Shown one piece after another: positions 1-4,204 of a stretch of DNA of 4,204 nt. Made by a program: the position numbers and the translations under genes. Below the pieces are notes generated by a model that had not been told where the DNA came from, did not search any database, and saw only the letters and a list, made by a program, of their open reading frames with translations. How positions within the stretch are numbered: position 1 is the stretch's first letter; every line of letters begins with the position of its first letter. Source of the DNA: a virus (Duplodnaviria > Heunggongvirae > Uroviricota > Caudoviricetes); the IMG/VR virus record IMGVR_UViG_2548876940_000010, positions 1-4,204 of that record. One strand, given 5' to 3'.

Positions 1-17
1 GAAGTAATACCCGCACG

Positions 18-296
18 TTACCTCCAGATGCGTTGCTGGAATGTGCGGGACGGACGTGGTGGGCGCTCGGAGTAAGGAAGCCTGACGGAGATTATCCAGT
101 GACGATAATCGAGGCTGAGGGCTTTCTTAATCTCGTATCCGTGTCTGCGGTAGCACTGAATTAGCCACTCGGCCTGTTCTTCAGTGCATGGGGGATGCTG
201 GAACCAGTCAGATTTGAAAGTGCGGGAACGCCGCCCGTGCCTGCTGGCAAAGACGGCAGAATCATCAGAATTGTGTAATTTGGTATCGTGCGCCAT
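18..296 (-). CDS. Hypothetical small basic protein (92 aa from the only in-frame ATG); function unknown
   Basis: Minus-strand ORF ending at TAA (18-20). The track ORF starts at a TTG (375-377) that lies inside the U-tract of the upstream terminator, so the only in-frame ATG (294-296) is the more plausible start, though its SD is weak (AGAGA). Protein is Arg/His/Trp-rich with no recognised motif. It sits where the nin-region genes begin in lambdoid phages. Confidence 0.4.
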   Translation of the reverse strand: MAHDTKLHNSDDSAVFASRHGRRSRTFKSDWFQHPPCTEEQAEWLIQCYRRHGYEIKKALSLDYRHWIISVRLPYSERPPRPSRTFQQRIWR

Positions 297-347
297 CGGT
301 TGTCTCTGCTGGCGCAGCAGGTGCCAGTTGTTCAGGCTGGCGTGCGA

Positions 348-377
348 ATTGTAAACCAGAATGCCAGGAAAAAACAA
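348..377 (-). promoter_or_regulatory. Candidate sigma70 promoter for the 18..296 ORF (TTGTTT -35, 18-nt spacer, TACAAT -10)
   Basis: On the minus strand, TTGTTT (complement of 372-377) and TACAAT (complement of 348-353) are separated by 18 nt. The -35 lies within the U-tract of the hok terminator. Sequence-pattern match only. Confidence 0.3.
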
Positions 378-395
378 AACCCGCCGAAGCGGGTT
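368..395 (-). terminator. Rho-independent terminator ending the hok transcript
   Basis: On the minus strand: perfect 7-bp stem AACCCGC/GCGGGUU (378-384 pairs with 389-395), UUCG tetraloop (385-388), immediately followed by UUGUUUUUUCC (377 down to 367). Lies about 70 nt downstream of the hok stop codon. Confidence 0.7.
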
Positions 396-399
396 AAGT

Positions 400-414
400 G
401 CGGGTGCGTTGAGG
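400..414 (-). promoter_or_regulatory. fbi-like 3' element of hok mRNA, complementary to the 5' end (tac) of the same transcript
   Basis: The minus-strand RNA here reads CCUCAACGCACCCGC, which pairs with the predicted 5' end GCGGGUGCUUGAGG (790..777) as 14 bp with one bulged base. This matches the fold-back-inhibition arrangement described for plasmid R1 hok mRNA. Confidence 0.5.
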
Positions 415-463
415 ATGCCTGATTCATCAGAGGTGGCGAGGGATTTCTCCCTCGCCGGGTCTC

Positions 464-619
464 TTACTCCTCAGGTTCGTAAGCTGTGAAGACAGCGACC
501 TCCGTCTGGCCGGTTCGGATTCGTACCTCGCAGAGGTCTTTCCTCGTTACCAGTGCCGTCACTATGACGGTTAAACAGATGACGATCAGGGCGATTAACA
601 TCGCCTTTTGCTGCTTCAT
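464..619 (-). CDS. hok: Hok/Gef-family type I toxin (51 aa, small membrane-depolarising peptide), HokD/RelF-like
   Basis: ATG at 617-619 (minus) preceded by SD AAGGAG at about 9 nt; stop TAA at 464-466. Product MKQQKAMLIALIVICLTVIVTALVTRKDLCEVRIRTGQTEVAVFTAYEPEE aligns nearly residue-for-residue with E. coli HokC/Gef and HokD as recalled from memory. It has the expected N-terminal transmembrane helix and the conserved TRKDLCEV...GQTEVAVF...YE core. Confidence 0.9.
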   Translation of the reverse strand: MKQQKAMLIALIVICLTVIVTALVTRKDLCEVRIRTGQTEVAVFTAYEPEE

Positions 620-676
620 AGCCTGCTTCTCCTTGCCTTTCGGCGCGTAAGAGGCTAACCTACATATGTCTAGCAT
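464..676 (-). CDS. mok: Mok-like reading frame (70 aa), an in-frame N-terminal extension of hok used for translational coupling
   Basis: ATG at 674-676 (minus) with GAGG about 7 nt upstream. The N-terminal MLDICRLASYAPKGKEKQA parallels the MokC extension MLNTCRVPLTDRKVKEKRA recalled from E. coli K-12. Same frame and stop as hok. Confidence 0.6.
   Translation of the reverse strand: MLDICRLASYAPKGKEKQAMKQQKAMLIALIVICLTVIVTALVTRKDLCEVRIRTGQTEVAVFTAYEPEE
633..661 (+). promoter_or_regulatory. Predicted Sok antisense RNA promoter (TTGCCT -35, 17-nt spacer, TAACCT -10)
   Basis: Plus-strand hexamers at 633-638 and 656-661 with a 17-nt spacer, located inside the mok N-terminal coding region. Position and sequence align with the R1 sok promoter (TTGCGC, 17 nt, TATCCT) as recalled from memory. 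The -10 is weak by consensus. Confidence 0.4.
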
Positions 677-740
677 GAAATTGGCCTCAGATTAATGTTA
701 GGCGTCTTGCAGGACGCGTAATGTTAACTGGGGCTTTTCT
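668..740 (+). ncRNA. sok: Predicted Sok-like antisense RNA; ends approximate
   Basis: Plus-strand segment downstream of the predicted promoter, antisense to the mok start codon (674-676) and mok SD (about 685-688) on the hok mRNA. Contains a 5-bp stem-loop (702-706 pairs with 713-717) and a U-rich stretch CUUUUCUCU (about 734-742). No canonical GC-stem plus U-tract terminator is evident, so the 3' end is uncertain. Confidence 0.4.
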
Positions 741-794
741 CTGTCTGCCTTACGGTGGCATGCCCGAGGCAGACAGCCTCAAGCACCCGCAGCA

Positions 795-822
795 ATTCTA
801 CTTAACTCTCGCTTTACCGCAA
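795..822 (-). promoter_or_regulatory. Predicted hok/mok promoter (TTGCGG -35, 16-nt spacer, TAGAAT -10), TSS near 788-790
   Basis: Minus-strand TTGCGG (complement of 817-822) and TAGAAT (complement of 795-800). The predicted transcript start GCGGGUGCUUGAGGCUGUCUGCCUC closely resembles the R1 hok mRNA 5' end GGCGCUUGAGGCUUUCUGCCUC (from memory), including the tac hairpin GAGGC-UGUCU-GCCUC. Transcript length to the terminator is about 420 nt, comparable to the roughly 400-nt R1 hok mRNA. Confidence 0.5.
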
Positions 823-864
823 ACCGTTTTTACCCGATATAGGAATTCCCATATCGTAATGAAT

Positions 865-969
865 TCAGTTCCCTAGTCGATCCATCAAAAACACAACCAG
901 GCAGTAAACGCCCACAACAGCAATAACAGCCAGCGCACCTTCTATTGCCAGTGAAATATCATCCGACAT
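865..969 (-). CDS. Small hydrophobic protein (34 aa, predicted single transmembrane helix); not in the supplied ORF track
   Basis: ATG at 967-969 (minus) preceded by a near-consensus SD (AAGGAGGG, 4-5 nt spacing); stop TGA at 865-867. Hand translation: MSDDISLAIEGALAVIAVVGVYCLVVFLMDRLGN, an acidic N-terminus followed by about 20 consecutive hydrophobic residues. No homolog recognised. Confidence 0.45.
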   Translation of the reverse strand: MSDDISLAIEGALAVIAVVGVYCLVVFLMDRLGN

Positions 970-1087
970 ATTCCCTCCTTTGGTGTGAATCCCGGCGAAC
1001 GTTTTTACCCCCACCGACAAATAACATATACTAAAAAATCAATAGCTATAGCAACGCCTGTAATTGCAAAGGCTTCAGGCCAGATCA

Positions 1088-1729
1088 TTAGCGCACCTCC
1101 TGCGGCGGTTCTGGTAGCGGCATCCAGTCGGTTACATTGCGGCTCTGTGTTTCGAAAAATTCATCACCATTACGGACTACATCAAAAAACTCACCGTCTC
1201 GATATTGCGCATAAAGAACGAATGCGCCATCACATAAAATAATTACGTGCTGACCATCATCCGGCATTCGCTCACTACAGCTTATCCAACCATCCGGAGT
1301 TACCGGATAGTTGGTTGACGTTTCCGAGATTTCCCGAAAATTATTGGTTGACGAACCCTTATTTTCCCGAAAGTTTCCAGCCTGAAGCATGGCGGCGCTG
1401 TCTGGCGGGGCAGCATATAGCGGCACGTATATTTCCGGTTCCTTATCAGCACCGGGTTGCTCTTCCAGTGAGAATGTCTTTCCGGTAAATCGATTCATAT
1501 AAAGCACGGGCTCTGCTTCCAGCGAAGCCTGAGCAACAAGGGCCAGTGCTAAATCCAACTCAATTGCCTCGAGAGAATTTTTGAATGCTGTCTGTTTTAC
1601 TGCAAATTTCATCGCCTTTACATTTTCACTAACATGACTGATTAACTGCTCTTTTGTAAAAGTGGTCATCTCATTCTCCTTTGATGCGAATGCCAGCGAC
1701 AATTGAAGCCTGATAGCTAATTCACTCAC
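1088..1729 (-). CDS. Phage protein with C-terminal DUF551-like domain; function unknown
   Basis: 213-aa ORF. The C-terminal segment GWISCSERMPDDGQHVIILCDGAFVLYAQYRDGEFF...VTDWMPLPEPP matches the DUF551 pattern recalled for enterobacterial phage proteins (W-I-S...LP..G..V......A.Y.DG.......VT.WMPLPEPP). Start is ambiguous: a GTG at 1727-1729 overlaps the upstream stop (GTGA) with AGGAGG 7 nt upstream, or an ATG at 1667-1669 with AAGGAG 6 nt upstream would give 193 aa. Confidence 0.7.
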   Translation of the reverse strand: MSELAIRLQLSLAFASKENEMTTFTKEQLISHVSENVKAMKFAVKQTAFKNSLEAIELDLALALVAQASLEAEPVLYMNRFTGKTFSLEEQPGADKEPEIYVPLYAAPPDSAAMLQAGNFRENKGSSTNNFREISETSTNYPVTPDGWISCSERMPDDGQHVIILCDGAFVLYAQYRDGEFFDVVRNGDEFFETQSRNVTDWMPLPEPPQEVR

Positions 1730-2121
1730 AGTACCGCCTCCTGAAAATTGCCCTGATAGAACGCCAGTACACGCAGCATAACTTCACTCTTCCGGCACTC
1801 GCCACAGATTATGTTCTGTTGTCTGTCGTAGCGGCGTATTTCTCCGTCTGGTAACTTTCGAATCAATGTCTGGTCGGTTGCTTTCTCCGCTGCCTTACGC
1901 CATACGCGATACACCTGTTCTGATGTAAAAACACCATATTTACCGGGCATGTATAAATCGCCACAAGCCAGTACATCCACAAGGCAACGTCTGACTGAAT
2001 GCCAGCCTGCTCCCGTCGCTCTCTCCAGTTGTGATATCGTCATGCGTTCATTTTTGCGTACCAGCCCGATAATTCGGGCCTTCAGTTCTTCACGCTGTTC
2101 GTGTGTAAAAGGTTTCGCCAT
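1726..2121 (-). CDS. Lambda Ren-like protein (131 aa): predicted winged-helix N-terminus plus conserved C-terminal C-x2-C-R...RVLA.Y motif
   Basis: ATG at 2119-2121 with GGAGG 7 nt upstream; stop TGA at 1726-1728. The C-terminus ICGECRKSEVMLRVLAFYQG resembles the lambda Ren C-terminus FKECRQSAAMKRVLAVYGVKR as recalled from memory. Lambda ren also lies just downstream of the replication genes. Assignment is memory-based. Confidence 0.6.
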   Translation of the reverse strand: MAKPFTHEQREELKARIIGLVRKNERMTISQLERATGAGWHSVRRCLVDVLACGDLYMPGKYGVFTSEQVYRVWRKAAEKATDQTLIRKLPDGEIRRYDRQQNIICGECRKSEVMLRVLAFYQGNFQEAVL

Positions 2122-2136
2122 AAGCGCCTCCGGCTA

Positions 2137-2907
2137 TCACTTTTCCGATACAACACGGCGGGAAGAATCAGTAATCTGTCGAACAATATCCCGGTGCTTG
2201 TTCAGCTCCCGCAGAGCGGCGCAGACTCGCTCCCACTTCTGAACATCACTTTTCGCCCTGCGCAGCGCCAGGTTTGCCCTGCGAAGGGACGGAAAAATCA
2301 GCTCATCTGCTTGCGTTTCGGTAAACGATGGCAACGGCTGCACAATGTCCGCCACAGTTTCTGTTTTAATTTCTTCCTGTGTTGCGGCTTCCCGGACTGG
2401 TAACGCAGCACCTGCTGGCTGAGGAAAGGCCTTACCATCATTTTTCGTTACCGGCGCGGCTTTCGGATCTGCTGGTAAATTACCCCCCGACATGCAGTAA
2501 CGAAATTTACCGTTCTGATTAACGCGTGCCAGCCGCCCCGTTGCGGTTACCACCGCCAGCGTGGAAGCAACCTTGCGAGTACTGACGCCGAACTTACCCG
2601 CCAGTTCCTCACACGTTTTAGCACCATCCTGACCGATAAACTCAACCATCATGTCTGCGGTAACTTTTGGAGCGACCTCTTCGGTTACCACATCCGGCGC
2701 TTCAGGTTGTAGTGCCTGCCCTTCGGTTACCCCGGCTTCACCTTCGACAGCCAGAAACCAGGTGTGACCCGTTTTATCAACAACGCCATTTTTTTTGAGT
2801 TCCCACAGTTCGTTAAGAACTTCTTCACGGCTGATATCAAGCCGCGCCGCCAGTTCAACAGAATTGGCTTTTCCCATCGCTTTCAGTGCATGCAATACAG
2901 TTTCCAT
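2137..2907 (-). CDS. Phage hypothetical protein (256 aa) with two winged-helix-like segments and a basic C-terminal helical tail; function unknown
   Basis: ATG at 2905-2907 with GAGGT upstream; stop TGA at 2137-2139. Two HTH-like segments (SVELAARLDISREEVLNELWELKKNG and CEELAGKFGVSTRKVASTLAVVTATGRLARV) are separated from the C-terminus by a Pro/Ala-rich linker. Long, clean ORF tightly spaced with its neighbours (25 nt from the DnaC-like stop, 15 nt to the Ren-like start). Possibly DUF1627-like, but this is not verifiable without a search. Confidence 0.75.
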   Translation of the reverse strand: METVLHALKAMGKANSVELAARLDISREEVLNELWELKKNGVVDKTGHTWFLAVEGEAGVTEGQALQPEAPDVVTEEVAPKVTADMMVEFIGQDGAKTCEELAGKFGVSTRKVASTLAVVTATGRLARVNQNGKFRYCMSGGNLPADPKAAPVTKNDGKAFPQPAGAALPVREAATQEEIKTETVADIVQPLPSFTETQADELIFPSLRRANLALRRAKSDVQKWERVCAALRELNKHRDIVRQITDSSRRVVSEK

Positions 2908-2932
2908 CGAAAATTTACCTCGTCAAAAATTC

Positions 2933-3673
2933 TCACATACCCTGACGTCCAACGTTTGACCGCCAGCTCTCCCAGTTAAAATTCACCCAACGACCACCAT
3001 TCATGGTCATACGGTCCATCACCCGATCTCCGAGGAGTGTGCTCATCGCTGCGTGATTCAGGTTCGTCAGCATTCCGACACTACGCATCGAAGCCGTTCT
3101 GCGGTCGACTATCTGGTTCAGCGTGACCTGCTCGTTGCGCGTATCCCGCTGCATGCCAATTTCATCAAGGACCAGAAGGTCAACTCCACAAAGCTCCTGT
3201 AAAAATTTTTCCCCGGACTGGCCGTTGTCGTAGCCGTCATGCAACACGCTCATGACATCGGACACGGTGACGATAATCACGCTTCTCCCCTTCGCCATCA
3301 GCCGATTGCCAATCGCTGCTGCCAGGTGATTTTTACCGGTACCAGGTTTACCGCTGAACACGAAGTTTGTACATCCGGTCATCAATTCATCGGCAATGGA
3401 TTTCGCCTGGCTCAGAGCATGGCGCTGACCGTCGTTCTGCACCCGGTAGTTCCCGAATGAGCACTTCCTGTGAAGCGGCTGGATGCCCGCACGGTTCAGG
3501 ATTTTTTCAACCCGCACCTGATGATTCAGGCGGTTAATCTCCTCGCTGCGTTTTCGTCCTTCAGCAAGTTGCCATTCCCGCCACTCCTCCACCGTCCGGT
3601 ACGGTGGAACCGCCCCCTGTGGTGCAAGTCTGCGAATACGTTCAAGAACCCCAACTGCCGCAATGTTTTTCAT
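2933..3673 (-). CDS. dnaC: DnaC-family AAA+ helicase loader (prophage replication protein, DnaC/YdaV-like)
   Basis: 246-aa ORF, ATG at 3671-3673 (minus). Walker A FSGKPGTGKNHLAAAIG and Walker B LLVLDEIG are present. Colinear similarity to E. coli DnaC as recalled (MKN..., RSGI.PLH..CSF.NY, FSGKPGTGKNHLAAAI, QIVDRR, GMLTN.N, LLG.RVMDRM, W..FNW.S.RS). The start lies 7 nt after the stop of the upstream DnaT-like gene, the same arrangement as the chromosomal dnaT-dnaC pair. Confidence 0.93.
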   Translation of the reverse strand: MKNIAAVGVLERIRRLAPQGAVPPYRTVEEWREWQLAEGRKRSEEINRLNHQVRVEKILNRAGIQPLHRKCSFGNYRVQNDGQRHALSQAKSIADELMTGCTNFVFSGKPGTGKNHLAAAIGNRLMAKGRSVIIVTVSDVMSVLHDGYDNGQSGEKFLQELCGVDLLVLDEIGMQRDTRNEQVTLNQIVDRRTASMRSVGMLTNLNHAAMSTLLGDRVMDRMTMNGGRWVNFNWESWRSNVGRQGM

Positions 3674-3679
3674 GACACG

Positions 3680-4204
3680 TCACCCCCTGAATCCCGGCGG
3701 TATTTCAGTGTCCGGTTCAGAAATATGATTCACACAACGCTGGTTGTTCGTGCCGCTTACCGGGAGCAACCAGGGGTTTTCAAAATTCCGGTCCGGCCCA
3801 AAAAACGTCGTCGCTCGCTGAACAAATTCCGTTCCCGCTTTCCCGGTCGCCGCCAGGTATCTTGCGTAACGCCTCACACCATCCAGCATGGTCTCTGGTG
3901 GCACCCCCTCGCGCAATCTGGCCTTCCAGGCACTGAAAGCGGATTTCTTCGGGTTTGCCCCGGCACGCAACGGGTATTCCCGCCAGACCTGTTCGAACAC
4001 ATCCGGATAATCCACTCGTCCCACAGGCTGCCCGGTGTTTTCCGGGGCTACCCGATCGGCTTCCCGCTGAATGGCGGAATCGGCTTCAGGCTGCTGCAGT
4101 TGGAGTGATTGCTCCGGCCTTGCGGTCATCACCTGCTGCACAGCGCCCGAATCGGCTTCCGGTGTCGTGCCTGCTGGCTGACCAGGATTGACGGTCTGAA
4201 CATC
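3680..4204 (-). CDS. Phage replication protein with DnaT-like C-terminal domain (primosomal protein I-like); 5' end lies outside the window
   Basis: The frame is open from the window edge (4204) to the TGA at 3680-3682; the M in the track is an internal GTG. The C-terminus ...NHISEPDTEIPPGFRG matches the DnaT C-terminus ...NTVSEPDSQIPPGFRG (from memory). It is coupled to the DnaC-like gene. True start and full length cannot be determined from this window. Confidence 0.8.
   Translation of the reverse strand, partial: DVQTVNPGQPAGTTPEADSGAVQQVMTARPEQSLQLQQPEADSAIQREADRVAPENTGQPVGRVDYPDVFEQVWREYPLRAGANPKKSAFSAWKARLREGVPPETMLDGVRRYARYLAATGKAGTEFVQRATTFFGPDRNFENPWLLPVSGTNNQRCVNHISEPDTEIPPGFRG

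Follow-up and report, generated by a model that had tools for sequence, protein, structure and literature searches.

A Rac-/lambda-like Escherichia coli prophage with a complete and probably functional hok/mok/sok toxin-antitoxin locus of the HokD/HokW subfamily

Relationship to described hok systems

Among close prophage relatives of the locus described here, only hokW-sokW of the Sakai prophage 5 (Sp5; PMC8621323) has been examined by direct experiment. The pair, which is also found in 933W-type Stx2 phages, acts as a toxin-antitoxin system for which RNase III and Hfq are partly needed (PMC8621323). Upon RecA-dependent induction SokW is lost and HokW is made (Takada et al. 2021, PMC8621323); the presence of hokW-sokW then speeds lysis and phage release, with release from a deletion mutant being around twofold lower (PMC8621323). 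Other well-described members are hokD (relF) in the relBE-hokD operon of the K-12 Qin prophage, the chromosomal hokC/mokC/sokC (gef) locus and the parB locus (hok/mok/sok) of plasmid R1.

In the window (i.e. the whole 4,204-nt stretch of viral DNA that was analysed), the region 822..369 on the (-) strand very likely represents a type I toxin-antitoxin module of the hok/mok/sok kind, complete and probably functional, which belongs to the HokD/HokW (Gef-like) subfamily. The module shows 91.5 % nucleotide identity over 431 nt with hokW-sokW of Stx2 converting phage I, and its 70-aa Mok-Hok ORF is 90 % identical to that of the hokW locus in the same phage. The two loci share an in-frame mok, the Sok -35 and -10 hexamers and a leader with an extended Sok hairpin, and the 71 nt predicted for Sok here equal the reported complementarity of SokW to the hokW 5' UTR (PMC8621323). 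They differ in the mok start region, i.e. the Sok 5' tail, where substitutions are found, in one compensatory pair of the 5' hairpin and in five residues at the Hok C-terminus (TAYEPEE here, VDYESEK in HokW). Furthermore, hokW follows the tail genes and is close to attP/int, whereas the present locus occupies the replication-nin/Q interval and is co-oriented with the early-right genes.

The relationship to K-12 hokD is of a different kind. While the hok coding sequence is identical to that of the window in a three-way alignment, and only about six positions differ between the hok Shine-Dalgarno (SD) sequence and the terminator, an interval that also contains the 3' stem-loop and fbi, the part of the K-12 locus that can be aligned starts only about 15 nt ahead of the hok ATG and ends at the terminator. 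Since homology is limited to this stretch, K-12 hokD lacks the leader, the mok start and sok; in place of the promoter, tac, ucb, mok start and Sok gene stands relBE. This agrees with the initial annotation, according to which K-12 hokD has no mok/sok control region of its own. Conversely, the relBE-hokD arrangement was not encountered in the window, which contains a full leader and no relBE near hok. The K-12 arrangement is a truncated derivative, and the prophage locus is the complete form.

The hokC/mokC/sokC locus has the same architecture, with an in-frame mok, an identical tac sequence and an fbi with a one-nucleotide bulge, and its Mok is about 70-73 % identical; in contrast, the GC-rich stretch of 18-20 nt that lengthens the Sok hairpin is absent from its leader, its terminator is a different one and it is located on the core chromosome. 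The same elements (tac, metastable hairpin, ucb, mok SD, dcb, fbi and Sok) also make up the R1 locus, for which the conformational switch is predicted alike, but R1 is a plasmid and the locus described here belongs to a prophage. In addition, HokW, and hence the near-identical Hok of the window, shares only about 44 % of its residues with R1 Hok, and mok of R1 is out of frame with hok, unlike the in-frame mok found here.

Assignment and architecture of the locus

Searches against profile models, which had been suggested in the initial annotation for both the peptide and the RNA, gave clear results. The 51-aa Hok matched Pfam PF01848 HOK_GEF with 82.9 bits (cut-off 22, E 1.2e-23), the region 788..614 (-) matched the full length (1-157) of Rfam model RF01794 with 114.3 bits (gathering score 59, E 2e-26), and the Mok-Hok ORF matched PHROG phrog_251, 'MokW-like host killing', with 114.7 bits. 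Only NCBIfam NF007279, 'type I toxin-antitoxin system Hok family toxin', gave 48.5 bits for Hok and thus remained below its cut-off of 73. The model is evidently geared to a different subgroup of Hok proteins, and given the Pfam, Rfam and PHROG scores as well as the 100 % identity with HokD, the miss was not counted against membership. RefSeq names the near-identical protein HokD despite the sub-cut-off NF007279 score. Other weak Rfam matches (ceN48, speF and CsrC) fell well short of their gathering scores and were disregarded.

The features of the locus are compiled in Table 1. The initial annotation had proposed a complete locus comprising a promoter with a 5' end like that of R1 hok mRNA, an in-frame mok, a 3' fbi complementary to the 5' end, a terminator with a UUCG tetraloop and a plausible antisense promoter for Sok, and all of these elements were recovered, with the toxin gene encoded on the (-) strand. 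Its description of the locus as regulatorily intact is likewise backed by the profile matches, the folds, the covariation, the way in which near-identical DNA is annotated and the genes around the locus. Two details needed adjustment. Hok had been called nearly identical to HokD, and while the relationship holds, the identity to K-12 HokD is in fact complete (51/51 residues). The sequence named 'tac hairpin' is present as described, yet it corresponds to the metastable hairpin that the tac region forms at the 5' end; the tac stem proper of the processed RNA consists of nt 1-8 paired with ucb nt 53-59. The role of this hairpin as the metastable one is assigned by analogy with R1 (PMC9841398).

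Table 1. Predicted elements of the hok/mok/sok locus and their positions in the window
Element	Position	Strand	Sequence or description	Basis
hok/mok promoter	795..822	(-)	-35 TTGCGG (822..817), 16-nt spacer, -10 TAGAAT (800..795)	Putative activity
Full-length hok (mok-hok) mRNA	369..788	(-)	About 415-420 nt, from +1 to the U tail of the terminator	Predicted ends
tac (translational activator)	777..788	(-)	GGGUGCUUGAGG; mRNA 5' end	Fold and Rfam consensus
Putative 5' metastable hairpin of the nascent transcript	766..780	(-)	GAGGC-UGUCU-GCCUC	Exact inverted repeat
Long hairpin	739..778	(-)	CUGUCUGCCU / AGGCAGACAG; mRNA nt 11-50	Full-length and truncated folds
ucb / anti-SD	730..736	(-)	AAGCCCC; mRNA nt 53-59; pairs with mok SD or tac	
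mok Shine-Dalgarno	685..688	(-)	GAGG; 8 nt upstream of the mok AUG	
mok ORF	464..676	(-)	70 codons in frame with hok; 19 N-terminal residues, then Hok	
dcb	651..656	(-)	AGCCUC; partner of mok SD in the processed RNA	Rfam consensus alignment
hok CDS	464..619	(-)	51 aa; SD AAGGAG (634..629) upstream	PF01848 match
Tyr47 codon	479..481	(-)	UAC, followed by G; reported TadA recoding position	Sequence
3' UTR stem-loop	435..456	(-)	GGCGAGGGAGAAAUCCCUCGCC	Helix 17, 90.3 % of cells paired
fbi (fold-back inhibitory element)	402..414	(-)	CCUCAACGCACCC; pairs with nt 1-12	Full-length MFE
Intrinsic terminator	395..378 and 377..369	(-)	AACCCGC-UUCG-GCGGGUU, with tail UUGUUUUUU	Terminator scan
Sok promoter	633..661	(+)	-35 TTGCCT (633-638), 17 nt, -10 TAACCT (656-661)	
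Predicted Sok RNA	668..738	(+)	About 71 nt; hairpin 683-734, U run 735-738	Predicted ends

The mok frame extends to or beyond the hok start in most of 44 homologues, and near-identical DNA carries the annotation hokD in RefSeq. HokD itself has served as a known-toxic control, and a site of A-to-I recoding from Tyr to Cys by TadA has been reported in hokC/D/E (bioRxiv 10.1101/2025.08.07.668861). Three homologues have UGC at the position of Tyr47.

Position 788 probably corresponds to the +1 of hok mRNA, since position 1 of the RF01794 model aligns there. The -10 hexamer ends 6 nt upstream of this nucleotide, whereas the -35 hexamer is weak, with three of six consensus matches. In all 44 homologues a TAnAAT-like -10 was found at a fixed distance from GGG(U/C)GCUU, even though the flanks further upstream are unrelated. 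Both the hok and the Sok promoter were missed by a scan for consensus promoters, for hok because of the poor -35 match. As both -10 boxes are conserved in the 44 homologues, and as sokW is silenced by mutation of the same -10 hexamer (TAACCT to GAGCCG, primer YO-421; PMC8621323), the missing hits were judged to reflect a threshold effect. The weak -35 box and the negative scan are all that would favour a chance likeness or a decayed pseudogene, a reading whose probability we regard as negligible: both reading frames are intact, Hok is 100 % identical to HokD, and the Rfam (E 2e-26) and Pfam (E 1e-23) scores together with the covariation described below exclude a chance resemblance.

Downstream of hok, the 435..456 stem-loop shows five pairs with changes on both sides in the homologue alignment and, by analogy with R1 (PMC9841398), probably protects the 3' end of the processed mRNA. 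In all but a few of the 47 loci scored, fbi is situated 45-52 nt past the stop codon, and the terminator is kept in the prophage-type copies as well as in K-12 hokD. A kinship of the hok 3' UTR with isrK (a Salmonella Gifsy-1 sRNA) was also considered, and was set aside as a generic resemblance between arrangements of a hairpin plus a terminator. The isrK model (RF01394) matched 455..374 below threshold (27.7 bits against 50) and did not match four homologous loci, and a distant-mode phage search with the 3' UTR returned no Gifsy-1 among the matches other than two Salmonella-phage records; nor did a literature search find a paper that links the hok 3' UTR with isrK.

RNA folding, Sok and the proposed mechanism

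The full-length mRNA folds with a minimum free energy (MFE) of -175.8 kcal/mol (z = -7.7) into a structure in which tac pairs with fbi and ucb sequesters the mok SD. The tac/fbi duplex alone reaches -21.5 kcal/mol in RNAduplex, compared with -14.8 kcal/mol when the 5' ends are shuffled. In the fold of the 3'-truncated RNA, tac switches to pairing with ucb, as it does in the Rfam consensus. While tac/ucb is formed in this truncated MFE structure, the canonical SD/dcb hairpin is not exactly reproduced, and its assignment comes from the Rfam alignment.

These structures were compared across 44 homologues from Escherichia, Shigella, Kluyvera, Photorhabdus, Pantoea, Erwinia, Citrobacter and Pseudocitrobacter. 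Standard pairs of the full-length fold were found in 88.1 % of cells, as opposed to 38-46 % in slid controls, and 37 pairs had changed on both sides, compared with 9-24 in these controls. The tac/fbi helix is paired in 92 %, with covariation at nt 4 (UA in 29 and CG in 12 homologues); this nucleotide is bulged in the tac/ucb stem and paired in tac/fbi. Within the long hairpin, alignment columns 15/48 contain AU 29, UA 6, GU 5 and GC 3 times, and the same compensatory A-U/G-C exchange also distinguishes the locus from hokW. The pairs of the tac/ucb stem form in 43 to all 44 homologues each, without any variation, and the outer SD/dcb pairs (GAGGC/GCCUC) form in 42-44 of the 44. As their core pairs are invariant, covariation is uninformative for these two stems.

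On the opposite strand, a Sok gene is predicted that faces the mok start in cis-antisense orientation and has a promoter and a terminator of its own. Both promoter hexamers and their spacing are kept in the 44 homologues (TTGCCT/TTGACC and TAACCT/TAATCT). The predicted RNA folds with -34.5 kcal/mol (z -5.35) and leaves a single-stranded 5' tail opposite the mok start region. The dcb element overlaps the complement of the Sok -10 box.

The mechanism has been shown for R1 and in part for hokW-sokW, and we infer by analogy that it also applies to the prophage copy. A weak constitutive promoter would give rise to a stable mRNA of about 418 nt, in which tac at the 5' end is paired with fbi at the 3' end and the mok SD is covered by ucb; owing to these two interactions, the full-length mRNA would be neither translated nor bound by Sok. 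Slow exonucleolytic trimming of the 3' end up to the 456..435 stem-loop would then remove fbi, so that tac could pair with ucb and the mok SD would be exposed in the SD/dcb hairpin. Translation of the in-frame mok would lead to the synthesis of Hok, unless the short-lived Sok RNA of about 71 nt, made from a stronger antisense promoter, binds the processed RNA where mok translation is initiated and thereby blocks this region and directs cleavage by RNase III. As soon as the locus ceases to be transcribed or Sok disappears, Hok would be made and would depolarise the inner membrane.

Distribution and physiological role

Upstream of the locus, the window encodes a replication initiator, a DnaC-like loader and DUF1627, DUF977/Ren-like and DUF551 proteins, and in a 99.6 %-identical locus of strain O103:H2 12009 the downstream genes encode DUF968, RusA and a Q antiterminator. 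The replication-type neighbours support the placement in a prophage early region proposed in the initial annotation, and there is little doubt that the locus sits in an E. coli prophage of the Rac-/lambda-like type, with the replication genes on one side and the nin/Q region on the other.

A Ren-like exclusion gene 1.1 kb upstream, as well as the general observation that prophages often carry defence genes, could suggest that the locus mainly serves abortive infection, i.e. the exclusion of superinfecting lytic phages, whose shut-off of host transcription would deplete Sok and free Hok. R1 hok/sok on a high-copy plasmid reduced the plating efficiency of T4 by 42 % and its plaque size by around 85 % (cited in PMC8621323). 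However, this effect was modest and required the high copy number, Hok and Mok match no defence model in a PADLOC-DB search, and hok genes are not enriched near defence systems according to a recent preprint (bioRxiv 10.1101/2025.08.07.668861). We therefore consider abortive infection as the main role very improbable.

The locus is not unusual. Similar DNA, annotated as hokD, was found in 4720 of 5426 complete E. coli genomes, with a median of two and up to ten copies, and 78 phage records contain similar DNA annotated as MokW, hok/mok or host killer. A published catalogue comprises as many as 44,248 Hok homologues and reports their enrichment in prophages. The window thus carries the standard prophage form found in most E. 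coli genomes, and nothing about the locus is new, as the family and its prophage-borne subfamily have already been annotated (hokD, MokW, phrog_251).

The number of copies also bears on whether the module stabilizes the prophage by post-segregational killing, in which case excision or loss of the prophage would leave a long-lived mRNA from which Hok is made and kills the cell. This is the classical function of plasmid hok/sok, but it is not known from any prophage hok locus, and most genomes contain several near-identical copies, whose Sok RNAs could protect against each other's toxins. Moreover, deletion of hokW-sokW had no growth phenotype in the absence of induction (PMC8621323). As the principal function, post-segregational killing thus appears distinctly unlikely to us; selfish stabilization of the prophage is possible as a secondary role.

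Among 62 distinct prophage-type copies, the coding and core regulatory sequences are nearly invariant, and variability concentrates in a hotspot at the Sok 5' tail and mok start (mRNA nt 101-125). This constancy argues against a structurally intact, physiologically silent passenger, selfish or 'fossil', that is transcribed and repressed by Sok and never kills under natural conditions, as does the maintenance of all regulatory helices across genera with compensatory changes. The relative hokW-sokW, furthermore, makes HokW and alters lysis and phage yield at induction. On the other hand, silence is what has been concluded for several chromosomal hok loci, the K-12 copy has shed its control region with the host unharmed, and the UAC codon of Tyr47 implies that Hok may be fully toxic only once A-to-I editing has turned this residue into Cys. 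On balance, we judge a silent passenger unlikely. In published work, the hokA, hokB and hokC loci, whose regulation looks intact, showed neither post-segregational killing nor a response to rifampicin, an observation that runs against a functional reading.

Most likely, by analogy with hokW-sokW, Sok would be lost at prophage induction and Hok would then assist early lysis and phage release. A role in prophage maintenance or abortive infection had been offered in the initial annotation as a conjecture, but the Sp5 experiment points to faster lysis and release instead. Regardless, the induction behaviour of hokW need not transfer to the early-right copy, since hokW is located elsewhere, near attP/int.

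Two further ideas, which taken together we regard as doubtful, concern the way in which such a role might be wired. First, being embedded in and co-oriented with the early-right transcription unit of a Rac-like prophage, the locus could act as a sensor of induction: de-repression would cause read-through over hok and head-on into the Sok promoter, and the resulting transcriptional interference would shut Sok off and turn Hok into an induction-coupled accessory lysis factor. If true, this wiring would be unlike plasmid post-segregational killing and would explain the RecA-dependent loss of SokW. Second, the hotspot at nt 101-125 could reflect a diversification that prevents cross-protection among co-resident prophage copies, rendering these orthogonal.

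Considering that a 91.5 %-identical relative has already been tested experimentally, the locus carries little weight as a discovery, and as to what prophage hok/sok does for phage or host, this copy is no more telling than those already known. The useful outcome is an annotation of every regulatory element at the level of coordinates, together with the confirmation that the textbook hokD of K-12 is the truncated form of a widespread complete locus.

The hok/mok/sok locus and its prophage surroundings

Both profile searches proposed in the initial annotation returned matches, i.e. the minus-strand segment 788..614 to the Rfam hok/sok family RF01794, a model built on the hok-sense leader, over its entire length (114.3 bits, gathering score 59; E 2e-26), and the product of the hok ORF to Pfam HOK_GEF (82.9 bits). 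The toxin, described there as nearly identical to HokD, does resemble it but is in fact the same as the K-12 protein in 51/51 residues. The remaining parts of the proposed locus, i.e. the hok promoter, the 5' hairpin, the in-frame mok, the 3' fold-back (fbi) element, the UUCG-loop terminator and the antisense promoter for Sok, were likewise located (Table).

Features of the hok/mok/sok locus and of neighbouring genes
Feature	Position	Strand	Basis or remark
Replication initiator, C-terminal part	4141..3680	-	Pfam/PHROGs
DnaC-like helicase loader	3673..2933	-	Pfam/PHROGs
DUF1627	2907..2137	-	Pfam/PHROGs
DUF977 / 'Ren-like exclusion protein'	2121..1726	-	PHROG phrog_142, 148 bits
DUF551	1669..1088	-	Pfam/PHROGs
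Tiny hydrophobic ORF, 27 aa, MIWPEAFAITGVAIAIDFLVYVICRWG	1088..1005	-	between DUF551 and hok promoter
Tiny hydrophobic ORF, 34 aa, MSDDISLAIEGALAVIAVVGVYCLVVFLMDRLGN	969..865	-	between DUF551 and hok promoter
hok promoter -35, TTGCGG	822..817	-	weak box
hok promoter -10, TAGAAT	800..795	-	good box
5' hairpin GAGGC-UGUCU-GCCUC	780..766	-	sequence
Predicted Sok RNA, 71 nt	668-738	+	
mok ORF, 70 codons	676..464	-	same frame as hok
Sok promoter -35, TTGCCT	633-638	+	sequence; 17 nt to -10
Sok promoter -10, TAACCT	656-661	+	sequence
hok ORF, 51 aa	619..464	-	
fbi element CCUCAACGCACCC	414..402	-	sequence
UUCG-loop terminator	395..378	-	terminator scan; U tail to 369
92-aa ORF, function unassigned	296..18	-	beyond hok locus

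A simple consensus scan reported neither promoter. The 44 homologous loci nevertheless share a TAnAAT-like box at an exactly constant distance from the conserved GGG(U/C)GCUU 5' end, with unrelated flanks upstream of this box; both Sok promoter hexamers are also conserved.

The hok Tyr47 codon, UAC(G) at 481..479 on the minus strand, lies inside a conserved UUACGAA. At this position, A-to-I (TadA) recoding of Tyr to Cys has been described for hokC/D/E, the recoded residue being the second cysteine of a disulfide (bioRxiv 10.1101/2025.08.07.668861), and three homologues (L050, L046 and L059) encode Cys directly (UGC). The site is possibly an extra safety layer, absent from the initial annotation.

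A sub-threshold match to isrK (RF01394, a Salmonella Gifsy-1 sRNA family) covers the hok 3' UTR stem-loop and terminator (455..374, minus strand; 27.7 bits versus 50, E 0.0035). It did not recur in four homologous loci, and neither phage records nor the literature yielded a link between the two; it is set aside as probably a generic hairpin-plus-terminator resemblance.

Every substantial ORF of the window lies on the minus strand; by their Pfam and PHROGs matches, these genes make up the early region of a lambdoid or Rac-like prophage. The corresponding stretch of E. coli O103:H2 12009 is 99.6 % identical, with RacR, a YdaT-family gene and replication genes upstream and DUF968, RusA, a Q antiterminator and lysis genes downstream; E. 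coli chromosomes match the full-length window at 97.6 % and bases 1-3742 at up to 99.1 %. The DUF977 gene upstream of hok adds to this region a second candidate for an exclusion or moron gene. The ATG of the 27-aa ORF overlaps the DUF551 stop codon, and its product gave no significant match in NCBIfam or PHROGs; the 34-aa ORF, labelled 'hypothetical' in RefSeq, gave none in Pfam, NCBIfam, PHROGs or PADLOC.

RNA folding and covariation among homologues

The full-length RNA (788..374) has a predicted folding energy of -175.8 kcal/mol versus -129.7 ± 6.0 for shuffles (z -7.7). In this structure fbi pairs with nt 1-12, in line with the complementarity noticed earlier, and the mok Shine-Dalgarno (SD) sequence with GCCCC of ucb (nt 53-59). 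With the 3' end removed, nt 1-8 are predicted to pair with ucb instead, matching the Rfam consensus. A closed-to-open switch of this kind is described for plasmid R1 (PMC9841398) and likewise appears in the predicted folds of the window RNA. The canonical hairpin between SD and its partner dcb was not reproduced exactly by the truncated-RNA fold; it is backed by the covariance-model alignment, its pairs forming in 42-44 of 44 homologues, depending on the pair. The predicted Sok RNA (z -5.35) would have its single-stranded 5' tail opposite the start of mok, followed by a long hairpin and then a U run.

Prophage-type (hokD/hokW) leaders contain a GC-rich insertion of 18-20 nt, CGCGUCCUGCAAGACGC (window ~719..700, mRNA nt ~70-89), that is missing from hokC, from the Photorhabdus loci and from the Rfam consensus and that extends the hairpin acting as Sok terminator on the opposite strand.

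Scanning one genome per species yielded 61 loci from Escherichia, Shigella, Kluyvera, Photorhabdus, Pantoea, Erwinia, Citrobacter and Pseudocitrobacter. In an alignment-free duplex search, a sequence complementary to the 5' end turned up 45-52 nt past the hok stop in all but a few of 47 scored loci, and it tracks the 5' sequence, i.e. GGGUGC... with ...GCACCC in E. coli and GGGCGC...GAGA with UCUC...GCGCCC in Photorhabdus. On a whole-mRNA alignment of 44 sequences, 88.1 % of cells were standard-paired in the full-length structure versus 38-46 % with slid partners, 37 pairs had changed on both sides versus 9-24, and the observed covariation score was reached in 0/500 shuffles. The tac/ucb stem leaves mRNA nt 4 as a bulge, whereas tac/fbi pairs it; its covariation (U-A in 29, C-G in 12) is therefore specific evidence for end-pairing.

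The mok reading frame varies within the family. It extends to or beyond the hok start in most of the 44 homologues, sharing the hok frame in most loci (the window, hokW and hokC among them), in the +1 frame with 55-68 codons in Kluyvera, Pseudocitrobacter and some Escherichia loci, and a 19-codon ORF terminating at the hok start in a few.

Some loci of other genera are arranged in tandem: three consecutive RF01794 matches lie on a contig of Photorhabdus temperata (L028 2913-4263), and Pseudocitrobacter faecalis (L050 2340-3246) has two adjoining complete loci. Near-identical E. coli-type loci on contigs L005, L011, L039, L051 and L057, labelled Veillonella parvula MAG, Xanthomonas pisi, Acinetobacter idrijaensis, 'Candidatus Scatousia' MAG and Haemophilus MAG, appear to reflect contamination or mis-binning and not the real host range; these contigs are mostly short (275 bp to 3 kb; Veillonella 22.9 kb).

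Among 62 distinct prophage-type copies (≥85 % identical, a sample biased to query-like Mok proteins), the hok CDS, fbi and the remaining Sok-complementary region are almost invariant, and entropy peaks internally at 688..664 (mRNA nt 101-125) and 758..749 (nt 31-40), i.e. where mok starts and the Sok 5' tail has its target, and in the apical loop of the 5' hairpin. Either specificity diversification of co-resident copies or merely relaxed constraint could underlie these peaks; from the hotspot at nt 101-125, it is tempting to speculate that the Sok recognition tail has diversified among such copies.

Distribution and comparison with K-12 hokD

This kind of locus is already known. By megablast, 368-822 is matched in 4720 of 5426 complete E. 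coli genomes (at ≥80 % coverage in 3953), at a median of two and a maximum of ten places per genome, and the matching genes bear the name 'type I toxin-antitoxin system toxin HokD'. The locus also occurs in 78 phage records, under labels including MokW, 'host killer' and 'gef: phage maintenance protein' and as mok/hok in phage Rac, has at least 594 relatives in IMG/VR, and has a dedicated PHROGs family (phrog_251, 'MokW-like host killing'). A recent preprint catalogued 44,248 Hok homologues, enriched in prophages (23 % observed versus 5 % expected), and used HokD as a toxic control (bioRxiv 10.1101/2025.08.07.668861).

As the initial annotation had stated, K-12 hokD lacks the mok/sok control region retained here: it aligns only from CAGGAGAAGCAGGCUAUG, about 15 nt 5' of the hok ATG, through the CDS, 3' stem-loop, fbi and terminator, with relE in place of the upstream sequence. 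The complete form is common, and K-12 hokD is a derivative. In this truncated locus (L002 5026-5304), fbi and the 3' stem-loop are intact although the 5' pairing partner, tac, is gone; the 3' regulatory half is a surviving relic.

Mechanism and physiological role

All elements being present and their pairings evolutionarily conserved, the claim of a complete, regulatorily intact locus holds. We conclude with high confidence that it is an intact hok/mok/sok module working like that of R1, and infer its transcription, processing, toxicity and RNA half-lives. The hok mRNA would be inert with its ends paired, 3' trimming would trigger the tac/ucb switch, and translation of Hok would be coupled to mok; antisense Sok would block the mRNA, followed by RNase III decay.

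The closest experimental precedent is hokW-sokW of Sakai prophage Sp5 (Takada et al. 2021, PMC8621323), whose equivalent in Stx2 phage I shares 91.5 % DNA and 90 % Mok-Hok identity with the window. In that study, HokW was toxic and was neutralised by SokW from its own promoter, with partial contributions of RNase III and Hfq and a complementarity of 71 nt between SokW and the 5' UTR. The hexamer mutated in the promoter-less sokW construct (TAACCT to GAGCCG, primer YO-421) is the same as the predicted Sok -10 of the window. Upon RecA-dependent prophage induction SokW is lost and HokW appears, and deletion of hokW-sokW delayed growth arrest by ~40 min and halved phage release (PMC8621323).

Alternatively, the locus might stabilise the prophage by post-segregational killing or act in abortive infection; against the latter, Hok matches no PADLOC model, and the preprint reports no enrichment of hok near defence systems (bioRxiv 10.1101/2025.08.07.668861). 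It might also be physiologically silent, as reported for chromosomal hokA/B/C. Its physiological role is uncertain; among analogies, induction-coupled Hok production, which may speed lysis, has the best support. More speculatively, read-through from the early-right operon might silence Sok on induction.
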